Shown: positions 18,171 through 31,773 of the stretch, piece after piece | Position numbering within the stretch: position 1 is the stretch's first letter | Layout of the letters: every line of letters starts with the position of its first letter | NCBI RefSeq assembly: GCF_048403405.1 | Contig: NZ_CP183129.1 | DNA: 64,000 nt | DNA from: Escherichia coli | GTDB taxonomy: Bacteria; Pseudomonadota; Gammaproteobacteria; Enterobacterales; Enterobacteriaceae | Strand: one strand, 5' to 3' | Notes under the pieces: generated by a model | What the model saw: only the letters and a program-made list of their open reading frames with translations | Told to the model about the DNA's origin: nothing | Databases searched by the model: none | Translations under genes and position numbers: made by a program

Positions 18171-19508
18171 ATGAACACTTCACCGGTGCGAATGGATGAT
18201 TTACCGCTTAACCGTTTTCACTGTCGAATTGCTGCGCTCACTTTCGGCGCACACCTGACCGACGGTTATGTTCTCGGCGTCATTGGTTACGCCATTATTC
18301 AGCTTACGCCCGCCATGCAACTGACGCCGTTAATGGCGGGAATGATTGGCGGCTCGGCGCTCCTTGGTTTGTTTCTTGGCAGCCTGGTTCTTGGATGGAT
18401 CTCCGACCATATTGGTCGGCAAAAAATCTTCACCTTCAGCTTTTTGCTGATTACGCTCGCTTCGTTTTTACAATATTTTGCCACCACGCCAGAGCATCTT
18501 ATAGGACTACGCATTTTGATTGGCATTGGTCTGGGAGGCGATTACTCAGTAGGTCACACTTTGCTGGCTGAATTTTCTCCGCGCCGCCATCGCGGTGTTT
18601 TGCTGGGCGCATTCAGTGTGGTGTGGACCGTAGGCTATGTGCTGGCAAGTATTGCCGGACATCACTTTATTACCGAAAGCCCGGAGGCCTGGCGCTGGCT
18701 GCTGGCATCAGCGGCGTTACCAGCCTTGCTGATTACGCTGCTACGTTGGGGAACGCCAGAATCGCCACGCTGGCTACTGCGCCAGGGGCGTTTTGCAGAA
18801 GCTCACGCTATCGTGCATCGCTACTTTGGTCCCCATGTTTTACTGGGCGATGAAGTGGCAACGGCGACCCATAAACACATCAAAACCTTGTTCTCTTCGC
18901 GCTACTGGCGGCGCACGGCGTTTAACAGCGTCTTCTTTGTCTGCCTCGTAATCCCATGGTTTGTGATTTACACCTGGCTGCCAACTATCGCGCAAACTAT
19001 TGGTCTGGAAGATGCGCTGACAGCTAGCCTGATGCTTAATGCGTTGTTAATTGTGGGCGCGCTGCTGGGATTAGTTCTGACGCACCTGCTGGCACATCGC
19101 AAATTTTTGCTGGGAAGTTTTTTGCTGCTGGCGGCAACGCTGGTAGTGATGGCCTGTTTGCCTTCCGGTAGTTCATTAACGCTGCTGCTTTTTGTTCTCT
19201 TCAGCACCACCATTTCGGCAGTCAGTAATCTGGTGGGCATTTTGCCTGCGGAAAGTTTTCCTACTGACATTCGCTCGCTGGGCGTCGGTTTTGCCACCGC
19301 CATGAGTCGGTTGGGCGCGGCAGTAAGTACGGGCCTGCTGCCGTGGGTGCTGGCGCAGTGGGGAATGCAAGTCACCTTATTGCTCCTGGCGGCAGTGTTG
19401 TTGGTTGGTTTTGTCGTGACCTGGCTATGGGCACCAGAAACCAAAGCACTCCCGCTGGTGGCGGCGGGAAATGTAGGAGGTGCGAATGAACATTCTGTTA
19501 GCGTTTAA
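18171..19508 (+). CDS. ygcS: MFS transporter YgcS
   Basis: Polytopic membrane ORF; internal ATG at 18171 (MNTSPVRMDD...) chosen over the ORF-track start at 18099. Confidence 0.88.
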   Translation: MNTSPVRMDDLPLNRFHCRIAALTFGAHLTDGYVLGVIGYAIIQLTPAMQLTPLMAGMIGGSALLGLFLGSLVLGWISDHIGRQKIFTFSFLLITLASFLQYFATTPEHLIGLRILIGIGLGGDYSVGHTLLAEFSPRRHRGVLLGAFSVVWTVGYVLASIAGHHFITESPEAWRWLLASAALPALLITLLRWGTPESPRWLLRQGRFAEAHAIVHRYFGPHVLLGDEVATATHKHIKTLFSSRYWRRTAFNSVFFVCLVIPWFVIYTWLPTIAQTIGLEDALTASLMLNALLIVGALLGLVLTHLLAHRKFLLGSFLLLAATLVVMACLPSGSSLTLLLFVLFSTTISAVSNLVGILPAESFPTDIRSLGVGFATAMSRLGAAVSTGLLPWVLAQWGMQVTLLLLAAVLLVGFVVTWLWAPETKALPLVAAGNVGGANEHSVSV

Positions 19509-20265
19509 AGCCGAACCGGATGCCGGAATGCTGGCGGAAAAAGAGTGGCAGGCGGCGGCTCAGGGTAATAGCGGACCGGATGTTTCGCTTCTGCTAAGTT
19601 TACTCGGTGCTGATGAACAGGCTGCCGCCGCGCTGCTGTTGGCGCAGAGAAAAAACGGTACGTCGATGTCTTTAACCGCGTTGAGCATGGGGAATGAACG
19701 GGCGTTGCACTGGCTGCGCTATCTCATGGCTCTTGGGTTTGAGGAAGCTGTATTGCTGGAGACGGCGGCAGATCTGCGCTTTGCGCCGGAATTTGTCGCT
19801 CGCCATATTGCCGAATGGCAGCGTCAGAATCCGCTGGATCTGATAATTACCGGCTGCCAAAGCAGCGAAGGGCAGAATGGGCAAACGCCATTTTTGCTGG
19901 CGGAAATGCTGGGCTGGCCCTGCTTCACCCAGGTGGAGCGTTTCACTCTCGACGCGCCGTTTATCACCCTCGAACAGCGTACTGAACATGGGCTGCGCTG
20001 TTGCCGGGTTCGCTTGCCTGCGGTGATTGCCGTGCGTCAGTGTGGTGAAGTGGCCTTGCCAGTACCGGGAATGCGCCAGCGAATGGCTGCGGGGAAAGCA
20101 GCAATTATCCGTAAAACTGTTGCTGCCGAATCGCCAGCGATGCAGTGTCGGCAACTGGCAAGAGCAGAGCAACGACGCGGAGCGACGCTGATTGATGGGC
20201 AAACGGTAGCAGAAAAAGCGCAAAAGCTATGGCAGGACTATTTACGCCAAAGGATGCAGCCATGA
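19486..20265 (+). CDS. ygcR: Electron-transfer flavoprotein beta-subunit-like protein YgcR
   Basis: ORF MNILLAFKAEPDAGML... ETF-beta/FixA-like; start trimmed from the ORF-track 19480. Confidence 0.85.
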   Translation: MNILLAFKAEPDAGMLAEKEWQAAAQGNSGPDVSLLLSLLGADEQAAAALLLAQRKNGTSMSLTALSMGNERALHWLRYLMALGFEEAVLLETAADLRFAPEFVARHIAEWQRQNPLDLIITGCQSSEGQNGQTPFLLAEMLGWPCFTQVERFTLDAPFITLEQRTEHGLRCCRVRLPAVIAVRQCGEVALPVPGMRQRMAAGKAAIIRKTVAAESPAMQCRQLARAEQRRGATLIDGQTVAEKAQKLWQDYLRQRMQP

Positions 20266-21122
20266 ATATCGCAATTGTGACAATAAATCAGGAGAATGCC
20301 GCAATAGCGAGCTGGCTGGCAGAACAGGATTTCAGCGGTTGTACCCTGGCACACTGGCAGATTGAACCTCAGCCCGCTGTGGCGGAACAGGTACTGGATG
20401 CGCTGGTGGAACAGTGGCAGCGAACGCCTGCGGACGTTGTTATCTTTCCGCCGGGAACGTTTGGCGATGAACTGTCGACCCGGCTGGCCTGGCGTTTACA
20501 TGGTGCAAGCATCTGCCAGGTGACTTCGTTAGATATTCCAACCGTAAGCGTGCGCAAATCCCACTGGGGAAATGCGCTAACGGCGACGCTGCAAACAGAA
20601 AAACGCCTGCTATGCCTTTCCCTGGCGCGTCAGGCGGGAGCAGCGAAAAACGCCACGTTGCCCTCTGGTATGCAGCAACTGAACATTGTCCCAGGTGCGC
20701 TTCCCGACTGGCTGGTTAGCATAGAGAATCTGAAAAATGTTAGCCGCGACCCATTAGCTGAAGCCAGACGGGTGCTGGTGGTGGGGCAGGGCGGAGAGGC
20801 AGATAACCAGGAAATCGCTATGCTGGCAGAAAAGCTGGGAGCCGAAGTGGGCTACAGTCGGGCGCGAGTGATGAACGGTGGCGTTGATGCTGAAAAAGTG
20901 ATTGGTATTTCCGGACATCTGCTGGCACCTGAGGTGTGCATTGTTGTTGGCGCTTCCGGCGCAGCAGCGTTAATGGCGGGCGTACGCAATAGCAAGTTTG
21001 TGGTGGCGATTAATCATGACGCCAGCGCGGCGGTATTTTCACAGGCAGATGTTGGCGTGGTTGATGACTGGAAAGCGGTGCTGGAGGCACTGGTGACAAA
21101 CATTCACGCAGATTGCCAATAA
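20262..21122 (+). CDS. ygcQ: Electron-transfer flavoprotein alpha-subunit-like protein YgcQ
   Basis: ORF MNIAIVTINQENAAIASWLAEQ... ETF-alpha/FixB-like; overlaps the ygcR stop. Confidence 0.85.
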   Translation: MNIAIVTINQENAAIASWLAEQDFSGCTLAHWQIEPQPAVAEQVLDALVEQWQRTPADVVIFPPGTFGDELSTRLAWRLHGASICQVTSLDIPTVSVRKSHWGNALTATLQTEKRLLCLSLARQAGAAKNATLPSGMQQLNIVPGALPDWLVSIENLKNVSRDPLAEARRVLVVGQGGEADNQEIAMLAEKLGAEVGYSRARVMNGGVDAEKVIGISGHLLAPEVCIVVGASGAAALMAGVRNSKFVVAINHDASAAVFSQADVGVVDDWKAVLEALVTNIHADCQ

Positions 21123-27663: not shown

Positions 27664-27708
27664 GGTCTTGTAGGCCTGATAAGACGCGTGAGCGTCGCAT
27701 CAGGCAAG
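27664..27708. repeat. REP element between cysI and cysH
   Basis: GTAGGCCTGATAAGACGCGTGAGCGTCGCATCAGGC palindromic REP pattern. Confidence 0.75.
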
Positions 27709-28461: not shown

Positions 28462-28478
28462 ATATTGCCGGATAAATT

Positions 28479-28518
28479 AAACGCCTCTGTCAGAAATGAT
28501 GGGGGCGTTTTTATTTTG
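28479..28518 (+). terminator. Terminator-like hairpin after cysH
   Basis: ACGCCTC...GGGGGCGT stem followed by TTTTTATTTT. Confidence 0.5.
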
Positions 28519-28725
28519 CGAGCAGCATTCCGGCATTTAAAGGTGAACATCGCAGGGAGAATTAACAGGTATAGAATGGAGTTGGGTGCTTGAGGCTGTC
28601 TGGCGTTAAGCATTCGCGAGGTTCCAGATGGACAAAAGCCCCAGGCGATATTTCTATCAACCTGAGGCCAGCGTTCGAACCTAAGCAATTCGAATGTTAG
28701 TCTCTTCTTTGCAGGGAGGCAAGAC

Positions 28726-28878
28726 ATGCTGACAAAATATGCCCTTGTGGCAATCATCGTACTGTGTTGTACAGTACTGGGATTCACGCTGATGGTAGGC
28801 GACTCGTTGTGTGAGTTGAGTATCAGAGAACGTGGTATGGAGTTTAAGGCAGTTCTCGCTTACGAATCGAAGAAGTAG
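28726..28878 (+). CDS. Hok/Gef-family type I toxin (50 aa), not in ORF track
   Basis: ATG at 28726 preceded by AGGGAGG RBS; translation [50 protein letters not shown] has the Hok-family TM helix and C-terminal ...AYES.K signature; frame anchored against the antisense ORF 28681..28935. Confidence 0.8.
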
Positions 28879-29115
28879 CCACCACGCGGGGGTAAAACCC
28901 CGCGTATTGGATTGTGATGGTTTGGTCTCCTGCACCCTTTTTTAATTTATATTGTTTATGTAAATATTATGCCTATGTTTATTATTCATATATATTACGG
29001 ATGAAAATTATTTGATTATTCATAATGTAAATATTTTATTGAACGATATATATCACAGATAATTTTTAATATATGCGTAAATATCCTTTAAGTTTTACTG
29101 AAGGATAAAAACATT

Positions 29116-31773
29116 GTGACTTTCTTTGATTTCTGGGGAAAAACCCGACGTGGCGAGAAAGAGGGTGGTGACGACTATCACCTTCTTTGCTGGCATTCGC
29201 TGGATGTAGCCGCGATGGGCTATTTAATGGTTAAAAGCAATTGCTTCGGGCTGGCTGACTATTTTCGTCAACTAGGTTTCGCTGATACGGAGCAGGCAGC
29301 ACAATTTTTCGCCTGGTTGCTGTGCTGGCACGATACTGGAAAATTTGCCCGCTCTTTTCAGCAACTTTACCTGCACCCGCAACTCAAGGTTCCGGAAAGC
29401 TCTAGAAAAAATTACGAAAAAATCTCTCATTCAACGCTGGGTTACTGGTTGTGGCACCATTATTTAAGTGAATGCGAAGAATTGCTTCCTTCATCTTCAC
29501 TCTCTCCGCGCAAACTTAAACGGGTGATAGAGATGTGGATGCCCATGACTACCGGGCATCATGGTCGCCCGCCTGACCGTATGGATGAACTGGATAATTT
29601 TCTGCCTGAAGACAAAGCCGCCGCGCGAGATTTTCTCCTTGTAATCAAGGCACTGTTTCCTCTCATCGAGATCCCCGCATTCTGGGATGATGACGATGGC
29701 GTTGAACTTTTAAAACAACTTTCCTGGTATATCTCTGCAACTGTCGTACTTGCAGACTGGACGGGATCGTCAACGCGATTTTTTCCACGCGTCGCGCAGG
29801 CAATGGATATTGAAGATTACTGGCAGAAGGCTTTAGTTCAGGCTCAAAACGCATTAACCGTCTTTCCTCCAAAAGCACAAACCGCGCCTTTCACCGGAAT
29901 TAATACGCTGTTTCCTTTTATTGAGCACCCGACACCGTTACAGCAAAAGGTGCTGGATCTGGATATCAGCCAGCCTGGGCCACAGTTATTTATTCTGGAG
30001 GATGTGACTGGCGCAGGTAAAACAGAAGCGGCGCTTATCCTGGCCCACAGGTTGATGGCTGCGGGGAAAGCACAGGGTTTGTTTTTTGGCCTGCCAACAA
30101 TGGCAACGGCCAATGCCATGTACGATCGGCTGGTAAAAACCTGGCTTGCTTTCTATTCGCCAGAATCCCGCCCCAGCCTGGTGCTGGCACACAGTGCCCG
30201 CACATTAATGGACCGCTTTAATGAATCACTCTGGTCCGGTGATTTAGTCGGGTCAGAAGAACCGGATGAACAAGCGTTCAGTCAGGGATGTGCGGCCTGG
30301 TTTGCCGACAGTAACAAGAAGGCGTTGCTGGCTGAAATTGGCGTCGGCACGCTGGATCAGGCGATGATGGCGGTGATGCCGTTTAAACATAATAATCTGC
30401 GGCTTCTGGGACTGAGTAACAAAATCCTGCTGGCTGATGAGATCCATGCCTGTGACGCTTACATGTCGTGCATTCTTGAAGGATTGATTGAGCGGCAGGC
30501 GCGTGGCGGAAACAGCGTTATTTTGCTTTCTGCCACGTTATCTCAACAGCAGCGCGACAAACTCGTTGCTGCCTTTGCGCGTGGTGCAGAGGGTCAGCAA
30601 GAAGCTCCGTTCCTGGAAAAGGATGATTACCCCTGGCTGACGCACGTTACGAAATCGGATGTGCATTCACACCGGGTAGCAACGCGCAAAGACGTTGAGC
30701 GTAGCGTGAGCGTGGGTTGGCTTCATAGCGAACAAGAGTGTATTGCGCGTATCGAATCGGCGGTAAGTCAGGGGAAATGCATCGCCTGGATCCGGAATTC
30801 TGTCGATGATGCTATTAAAGTTCATCGTCAGTTGCTTGCCCGCGGCGTCATTCCTGCTTCCAGCCTTTCTCTGTTTCATAGCCGCTTTGCTTTTAGCGAT
30901 CGCCAGCGAATTGAAACGGAAACGCTGGCACGCTTCGGTAAAGAAGATAGCTCACAGCGTGCCGGAAAAGTCCTCATTTGTACTCAGGTCTTAGAGTCGA
31001 GCGTTGATTGCGATATGGACGAAATGATTTCCGACCTGGCCCCTGTTGATTTGCTGATCCAGCGAGCGGGGCGATTACAGCGGCATATCCGCGATATTAA
31101 TGGTCAGTTAAAGCGTGACGGAAAAGACGAGCGTTCTCCTCCTGAATTGCTGATTCTGGCCCCCGTCTGGGACGACGCTCCAGGTGACGAATGGTTCGGC
31201 AGTGCCATGCGTAACAGTGCATATGTCTATCCCGATCATGGACGAATCTGGCTGACGCAGCGTGTACTGCGTGAGCAAGGCGCGATTCAAATGCCACACG
31301 CAGCCCGCCTTCTTATTGAATCAGTCTACGGTGAGGACGTGGTAATGCCGGAAGGATTTGCCCGCAGCGAGCAGGAACAAGTGGGCAAATATTACTGCGA
31401 TCGCGCAATGGCTAAAAAGTTTGTGCTGAACTTCAGGCCCGGCTATGCCGCCAATATCAACGATTACCTCCCGGAAAAGCTGTCGACACGTCTGGCTGAG
31501 GAGTCTGTTTCCCTGTGGCTGGCTACCTGTATTGACGGTGTGGTGAAGCCTTATGCCACCGGTGCTCACGCATGGGAAATGAGCGTTGTCAGAGTGCGTC
31601 GAAGCTGGTGGAAAAAACATTGCGATGAGTTTTCTTTACTGGAAGGGGAAGCGTTCAGGCAGTGGTGCGTTGAACAGCGGCAAGATCCGGAGATGGCAAA
31701 TGTGATTTTAGTTACCGATGACGAAAGTTGCGGGTATTCGGCTAGGGAGGGATTGATTGGTAAGGTTGATTGA
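29116..31773 (+). CDS. cas3: Cas3 HD nuclease/helicase (type I-E)
   Basis: 885-aa ORF, GTG start; HD motif (WHDTGK), Walker A (GAGKTEAA) and DEIHA helicase motif. Confidence 0.93.
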   Translation: MTFFDFWGKTRRGEKEGGDDYHLLCWHSLDVAAMGYLMVKSNCFGLADYFRQLGFADTEQAAQFFAWLLCWHDTGKFARSFQQLYLHPQLKVPESSRKNYEKISHSTLGYWLWHHYLSECEELLPSSSLSPRKLKRVIEMWMPMTTGHHGRPPDRMDELDNFLPEDKAAARDFLLVIKALFPLIEIPAFWDDDDGVELLKQLSWYISATVVLADWTGSSTRFFPRVAQAMDIEDYWQKALVQAQNALTVFPPKAQTAPFTGINTLFPFIEHPTPLQQKVLDLDISQPGPQLFILEDVTGAGKTEAALILAHRLMAAGKAQGLFFGLPTMATANAMYDRLVKTWLAFYSPESRPSLVLAHSARTLMDRFNESLWSGDLVGSEEPDEQAFSQGCAAWFADSNKKALLAEIGVGTLDQAMMAVMPFKHNNLRLLGLSNKILLADEIHACDAYMSCILEGLIERQARGGNSVILLSATLSQQQRDKLVAAFARGAEGQQEAPFLEKDDYPWLTHVTKSDVHSHRVATRKDVERSVSVGWLHSEQECIARIESAVSQGKCIAWIRNSVDDAIKVHRQLLARGVIPASSLSLFHSRFAFSDRQRIETETLARFGKEDSSQRAGKVLICTQVLESSVDCDMDEMISDLAPVDLLIQRAGRLQRHIRDINGQLKRDGKDERSPPELLILAPVWDDAPGDEWFGSAMRNSAYVYPDHGRIWLTQRVLREQGAIQMPHAARLLIESVYGEDVVMPEGFARSEQEQVGKYYCDRAMAKKFVLNFRPGYAANINDYLPEKLSTRLAEESVSLWLATCIDGVVKPYATGAHAWEMSVVRVRRSWWKKHCDEFSLLEGEAFRQWCVEQRQDPEMANVILVTDDESCGYSAREGLIGKVD

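Follow-up and report, generated by a model that had tools for sequence, protein, structure and literature searches.

What is the short gene that sits between cysH and cas3 on this Escherichia coli chromosome, and does it have anything to do with the CRISPR-Cas genes beside it? The window, as we call the whole 64-kb stretch of E. coli chromosome analysed here, carries the order cysJIH, hok and a type I-E cas operon. Strain TUM14771 matches it at 99.98% identity over 28.6 kb (14463-43115), and at 100% across 28462-29115. The TUM14771 annotation reads cysJ-cysI-cysH, Hok/Gef family protein, cas3-casA-casB-cas7e-cas5e-cas6e-cas1e-cas2e, CRISPR array, iap and cysDNC. We conclude, with high confidence, that this gene belongs to the chromosomal hokX/sokX type I toxin-antitoxin locus of E. 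coli, for which an R1-like mechanism is likely.

The upstream boundary of the module is the intrinsic terminator of cysH (28479-28518, plus strand), a 14-bp stem followed by a T-run that lies outside the module itself. A weak Rfam match to ctRNA_p42d at 28477-28519, below the gathering score, falls on this terminator hairpin and was dismissed as chance. Between cysI and cysH, positions 27674-27706 hold a perfect REP-like palindrome, TGCCTGATGCGACGCT..GCGTCTTATCAGGC; the partial Rfam naRNA4 match at the same place (33.6 bits, gathering score 59.5) is unrelated to hokX. Elsewhere in the window, ygcR, encoding an electron transfer flavoprotein beta subunit, is marked by RefSeq as frameshifted in TUM14771 (L017 5027-5804), which by transfer corresponds to about 19490-20270.

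The hokX coding sequence runs on the plus strand from an ATG at 28726 to a TAG ending at 28878. Its 50 codons specify a predicted membrane toxin of the Hok/Gef family, as judged by Pfam, RefSeq and identity to HokA. A sequence-only reading of this DNA had described it as a Hok/Gef-like ORF with a strong ribosome-binding site, and both parts hold: a Shine-Dalgarno sequence, GGGAGG, can be read at 28714-28719 (plus strand), 6 nt before the ATG, and a profile search matched residues 5-46 to Pfam HOK_GEF (PF01848) at model positions 1-42 of 42 with an E value of 6.3e-10. At only 50 codons, and under the cut-off of the first-stage ORF track, the frame might have arisen by chance in intergenic DNA, without biological meaning. 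We regard that reading as refuted, with next to no probability left to it, by the Pfam match, by the Rfam score of the leader (111.7 bits, gathering score 59) and by conservation, namely an identical protein annotated in all sampled genomes but one and the presence of hok DNA in 4220 of the 5426 genomes compared.

Within the family, the best NCBIfam match was HokA (E 2.6e-14), where the 53 bits scored by HokX do not reach the 89-bit curated cut-off of the equivalog model (NF007290); the NCBIfam Hok family subfamily model gave 39.5 bits against a curated cut-off of 73. Because these scores fall under the curated cut-offs, we treat the product as a Hok-family protein from a separate paralogue, hokX, and not as a HokA equivalog. 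Identity to the K-12 paralogues is 48% for HokA, 33% for HokB and 39% for HokC. HokX keeps the family layout: an N-terminal hydrophobic helix, then the conserved motif (D/K)SLCE(L/I/V), and A(Y/C)(E/x)S as the C-terminal tail. In the four-protein alignment C14, T16, L28, E30, E39 and A45 are invariant, and the DSLCEL form of the motif is common to HokX and HokA. Codon 25 (28798-28800) encodes Gly in place of the Arg that follows the membrane helix in HokA, HokB and HokC (MVGDSLCEL versus MIRDSLCEL). All 10 E. coli alleles examined have Gly25, a replacement that, judged from the protein sequence, could weaken the toxin.

The gene had been called unlisted, which is true of the first-stage ORF track but not of RefSeq, where it is annotated. 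RefSeq protein WP_000956458.1 ("Hok/Gef family protein") is identical to the window's product and was found at all intact sampled loci but one, the exception being a C15F variant, WP_000956460.1. Strains with WP_000956458.1 span phylogroups and include O157:H7, O104:H4, O25b:H4 and O2:K2:H1. The novelty implied by the sequence-only reading likewise falls away, the locus being already known and named in the literature as hokX/sokX. Namely, the gene in the cysH-iap region is identified as homologous to the hokX gene of E. coli B (PMC7232551); hok and sokX adjoin cysH in 90% of urinary isolates, the rest having sokX only, as does MG1655 (PMC12736100); and hok/sok was reported to be missing only from strains with the E2 cas variant (PMC3903273, Almendros et al. 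2014). The locus is also listed in TADB-based surveys. In sum, hokX/sokX belongs to the hok/sok family, is intact, and occupies the cysH-cas3 or cysH-iap intergenic region of most E. coli strains.

Does the surrounding sequence carry the RNA elements of a hok/sok system? The Rfam match that scored 111.7 bits (RF01794) covers the hok leader at 28584-28741 on the plus strand, aligns to the full model (1-157) and is the only gathering-level Rfam match in the window. The AUG that closes this alignment (28739-28741) is out of frame and was discarded as an alignment artefact; the in-frame start preceded by the Shine-Dalgarno sequence is the one at 28726. As a putative hok promoter we read the -10 box TAGAAT (28572-28577, plus strand), which has no good -35 box. 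It stands 6 nt upstream of the mRNA 5' end, and the corresponding boxes of hokC (TATAAT) and hokB (TAGGAT) are equally distant from GGGTGC. From the Rfam start, the fold and a comparison of strains, the predicted full-length hok mRNA is about 360 nt long and extends from GGGUGC to a T-run (28584-28943, plus strand); strains that have cas and strains that lack it remain similar up to about 28944.

Folding of the RNA 28584-28946 (z = -3.67) paired its two ends. A tac-like 5' element (28584-28597, plus strand) is predicted to pair with an fbi-like 3' fold-back element (28924-28943, plus strand), in which GGUCUCCUGCACCC at 28924-28937 supplies the pairing bases just 5' of the T6 at 28938-28943. 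Like the 5' element of hokX, hokB and hokC start with GGGUGC..GAG. Between the two ends lies the Sok-target hairpin of the leader (28664-28704, plus strand), taken from the Rfam consensus structure, with the AUG of a short upstream ORF in its 3' arm and a loop, 28680-28688, that is complementary to the 5' end of Sok. When the RNA was trimmed in silico to 28584-28908, a local 5' hairpin (28584-28615) formed and the probability that the Sok-target loop is unpaired rose from 0.42 to 0.98. The R1 hok mRNA, in the model of Gerdes, folds back on itself and then refolds after 3' trimming, exposing its target. Thermodynamic prediction suggests R1-like behaviour for hokX too, both in fold-back pairing and in refolding after 3' processing. 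A candidate YUNR U-turn in the Sok-target loop (CUAA, 28681-28684) is present in the window and lost in the K-12, O104 and O157 alleles, so we make no claim for it.

The earlier reading had placed an antisense Sok with its promoter on the minus strand at about 28600-28720, and the region indeed holds candidates for both. MG1655 sokX (b4701) aligns one-to-one with the window and gives a 59-nt SokX on the minus strand, running from 28686 to 28628. Its predicted fold consists of a single-stranded 5' tail and a terminator-like GC hairpin, then UUUUG (-22.7 kcal/mol, z = -3.57). Since the Rfam "sok" match sits on the plus strand, that model describes the hok leader, and it was left out of the strand assignment for Sok. 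The putative Sok promoter (28694-28722, minus strand) would combine a -35 box, TTGCCT (reverse complement of 28717-28722), with a -10 box, TAACAT (reverse complement of 28694-28699), across a 17-nt spacer; the Sok start at 28686 lies about 7 nt past the -10 box, in agreement with the annotated 5' end of K-12 sokX. On the strand opposite to hok, the putative -35 box overlaps the hok Shine-Dalgarno sequence and the -10 box overlaps the ATG of the upstream ORF.

These Sok hexamers fit 8 of 12 consensus positions and were left unreported by our consensus scan, for which the threshold was 9 of 12. The same scan for consensus promoters and terminators returned no hok promoter, no Sok promoter and no terminator 3' of hok. 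Its one promoter-like match (28729-28757, plus strand) lies within the hok coding sequence and was rejected; matches of this kind were fewer than expected by chance. We infer both promoters from the distance to the K-12 sokX 5' end and from comparison with the paralogues.

A 12-codon upstream ORF at 28694-28732 (plus strand), its stop overlapping the hok start in AUGCUGA, was found just as the sequence-only reading had described it. Aligned with K-12 hokB, it falls in the mokB frame (MLVSS versus ILASY) and looks like a truncated mok. At the position of the mokB ATG, hokX has TCG, and the ATG of its own short frame comes 18 nt later. The stop, at codon 13, is reached 4 nt beyond the hok AUG, and the frame is thus far shorter than mokB and mokC. 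The AUG of this frame also falls 8 nt beyond the part of the leader complementary to Sok; in the paralogues, sokB and sokC do overlap the mokB and mokC starts. The ORF is kept in 10 of 10 alleles, and the TGA-to-TAA change of its stop in O157:H7 is synonymous in hok. This conservation is not independent evidence for the ORF, because the putative Sok promoter and the hok Shine-Dalgarno sequence share bases with it. From its sequence and position it is plausible as a mok-like frame translationally coupled to hok. Coupling is less certain here than in R1, because the mok equivalent has just 12 codons and an AUG outside the Sok-complementary stretch. We tentatively consider, as a possibility that we would not favour, that hokX uses a distinct "mini-mok", a 12-codon frame that starts outside the Sok duplex and passes ribosomes to hok by termination and re-initiation. 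If true, this would be only a minor variant.

Downstream of the hok stop codon, the dominant local structure is an 8-bp GC-rich hairpin of the form GGGG-N-CCCC (ACGCGGGG / GTAAAA / CCCCGCGT) at 28884-28905 on the plus strand, exactly where it had been reported. We rejected it as a transcription terminator: there is no T-run behind it, and in the paralogues the fold-back element comes after the hairpin. An equivalent hairpin follows the stop codons of hokA, hokB and hokC, and we therefore take it to be a conserved 3' element of hok mRNAs. The 3' order of stop, hairpin, spacer, GCACCC and A/T-run is common to hokX, hokA and hokB. In hokX the hairpin probably marks the 3' end of the processed, active hok mRNA.

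This hairpin also recurs as a site of insertion. In an O104:H4 strain, IS421 (IS186 family) has entered the hokX GGGGG-TAAAA-CCCC hairpin with a 12-bp duplication, GGGGTAAAACCC, and about 800 genomes match hok only up to the 3' hairpin, with IS421 between the hairpin and the fold-back element. The hokC hairpin after the stop is interrupted by IS186. It is the equivalent GGGG-N-CCC hairpin that IS186 occupies in K-12 hokC, and the IS end sequence there is the same as that of IS421 at hokX. IS186-family elements seem to favour the conserved 3' hairpin of hok genes as a target, which would explain repeated insertions just downstream of these genes. A passage of PMC7232551, citing Pedersen and Gerdes (1999), regards the other K-12 chromosomal hok loci as inactivated by such IS events.

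Taken together, these elements allow a mechanism to be proposed, each step of which follows the R1 hok/sok model and draws on homology and folding predictions. The weak promoter would yield a stable mRNA of about 360 nt (28584-28943), whose 5' end would pair with its 3' end and keep it untranslatable and a poor target for Sok. Slow 3' trimming to the GC hairpin at 28884-28905 would then remove the fold-back element, so that the 5' end could refold and expose the loop at 28680-28688. While it lasts, the unstable 59-nt SokX (28686 to 28628) would bind this loop, covering the stretch immediately 5' of the truncated mok frame, and the resulting duplex would be degraded. If Sok is depleted, ribosomes would translate the 12-codon frame, stop 4 nt beyond the hok AUG and start again on hok. 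The resulting Hok, a 50-aa inner-membrane peptide, would collapse the membrane potential.

Is the locus still a working gene, or a conserved but functionally dead relic, like hokA-E in K-12, that is weakly transcribed at most and yields no active toxin? Several features speak for a relic. The five chromosomal hok loci of K-12 have been described as non-functional (PMC7232551), few reads were counted for the sok_15/sokX region of EDL933 (PMC5331693), and K-12-type strains have lost the hok body without obvious harm; within the locus, Gly replaces Arg25, the mok frame is truncated and the promoter matches are weak. Against this, the ORF, the Shine-Dalgarno sequence, the upstream ORF stop and Sok are intact, as are the hairpin and the fold-back pairing, and the protein is identical across distant phylogroups. 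Variation among alleles points the same way. Nine hok coding sites vary among 10 alleles, and 8 of the 9 are synonymous, the remaining one being C15F, a pattern that fits purifying selection on the peptide, as read from the sequences. Outside the coding sequence, changes at 28926 (U to C opposite G) and 28933 (C to U opposite G) preserve the 5'-3' pairing and, with the synonymous substitutions, fit purifying selection on a working gene. We consequently hold the relic reading to be unlikely and favour an intact, R1-like toxin-antitoxin locus.

The leader is otherwise near-invariant, with allelic variation clustered at 28669-28671 (an internal loop) and 28681-28685 (the apical loop) of the Sok-target hairpin. 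The variable Sok-target bases are those that meet the Sok 5' end. Variation in this loop may reflect drift, or antisense recognition specificities that have diversified between lineages.

Finally, we asked how the locus relates to its neighbours across 5426 complete E. coli genomes. The leader was present in 5425 of these and the hok body in 4220. In 2239 genomes hok is joined to the window's own cas3 upstream region; in 1124 it lies directly beside iap, the whole cas/CRISPR block being absent; and 1173 have the K-12 junction, in which the sokX remnant is followed by the K-12-variant cas3, with no hok. In about 800 further genomes an IS421 within the 3' hairpin separates hok from cas3. Rare forms included an inverted cas3 and loss of both hok and cas3. 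Three K-12-junction genomes that we sampled have an annotated full-length cas3 beside the sokX remnant, without the hok body. MG1655 itself annotates sokX (b4701) alone between cysH and cas3, which confirms the statement of the sequence-only reading that K-12 has only a sokX remnant here; its intergenic region aligns with the window through the hok ATG, which ends at 28728, and shows complete divergence beyond that point.

The sequence-only reading had suggested that the module might serve to maintain the cas locus. Put more strongly, hok/sok would be an addiction device for the type I-E CRISPR-Cas system, so that a cell losing the cas region would also lose sok and die. The arrangement invites the idea: hok lies directly upstream of cas3 in equal orientation, the window's junction recurs in the 2239 genomes counted above, and further genomes differ by IS421 between hok and cas3. 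Co-inheritance with cas does not bear it out. The 1124 genomes with hok beside iap retain an intact, annotated hok and lack the entire cas/CRISPR block, and the 1173 with the K-12 junction have cas3 and no hok body; both classes show that hok and cas have been gained and lost independently. Toxin and antitoxin, moreover, sit within 360 bp on the cysH side, so that a cas deletion need not separate them and evidently did not. Hok loss tracks replacement by the K-12 cas variant, the pattern reported in 2014, when hok/sok was found in all strains but those with the E2 cas variant (PMC3903273). We consider a cas-maintenance role very improbable: the position of hokX beside cas3 is genomic geography, not functional partnership.

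A different tie to cas3 could arise through transcription. Roughly 3000 genomes have hokX upstream of cas3, with both genes pointing the same way. No hairpin stands directly 5' of the hokX T-run, and no canonical intrinsic terminator was found after hokX. For that reason read-through is conceivable, and there is a slim chance that a constitutive hok promoter contributes low-level cas3 transcription; if it did, a toxin-antitoxin locus would be linked to CRISPR interference capacity.

The start of cas3 itself deserves a comment. The T-run at 29091-29096 upstream of cas3, within AAGTTTTAC, has one extra T in the window and in TUM14771 compared with the other alleles. This T breaks the long PGAP cas3 start (MRKYPLSLLKDKNI..., from 29073), which is why RefSeq flags cas3 as "frameshifted". 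The 885-aa cas3 ORF at 29116-31773, from the GTG at 29116 (VTFFDFWGK...), is intact, and the pseudogene call may stem from an over-extended start, not from a dead cas3.

The importance of these results extends little beyond correct annotation. They show that a sub-threshold ORF was a genuine conserved toxin gene and that reading raw sequence can recover type I loci missed by ORF cut-offs. Of minor value are the map of hokX RNA elements, the truncated mok frame and the recurrence, as in hokC, of IS186-family insertions in the GGGG-N-CCCC 3' hairpin.

How does the locus compare with known systems? From hokX/sokX as already described it shows no difference of substance: the locus, the flanking cysH, the protein (WP_000956458.1) and the SokX of MG1655 (b4701) are the same, with the window holding the intact form and K-12 the leader and sokX remnant only. 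The hok/sok (parB) locus of plasmid R1 serves as the model for type I toxin-antitoxin systems and for post-segregational killing. Similar to R1, hokX/sokX has a Hok-family toxin, a leader that fits the Rfam model and, as predicted here, an antisense Sok, about 60 nt long, made up of a 5' tail and a terminator hairpin, a putative Sok promoter that overlaps the hok Shine-Dalgarno region, and 5'-3' fold-back with refolding after 3' trimming. It differs in being chromosomal, not plasmid-borne. HokX also has Gly in place of the basic residue after the membrane helix. R1 mok has about 70 codons and runs across hok, whereas the hokX mok frame has 12 codons and ends at the hok AUG.

Relative to the K-12 paralogues hokA/sokA, hokB/mokB/sokB and hokC/mokC/sokC, hokX stands apart in protein identity (48%, 33% and 39%, respectively), in scoring below the HokA equivalog cut-off, and in a mok frame that is truncated and whose start has moved 18 nt downstream, outside the Sok-complementary region. 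The shared architecture is nonetheless extensive. A GC hairpin follows the stop codon in all three paralogues; the 5' GGGUGC..GAG recurs in hokB and hokC, the hokA leader being cut by IS150; and the 3' GCACCC with its A/T run recurs in hokA and hokB, the 3' end of hokC being interrupted by IS186. With hokB in particular, hokX shares an upstream ORF in the mokB frame, and with hokC an IS186-family insertion in the 3' hairpin.
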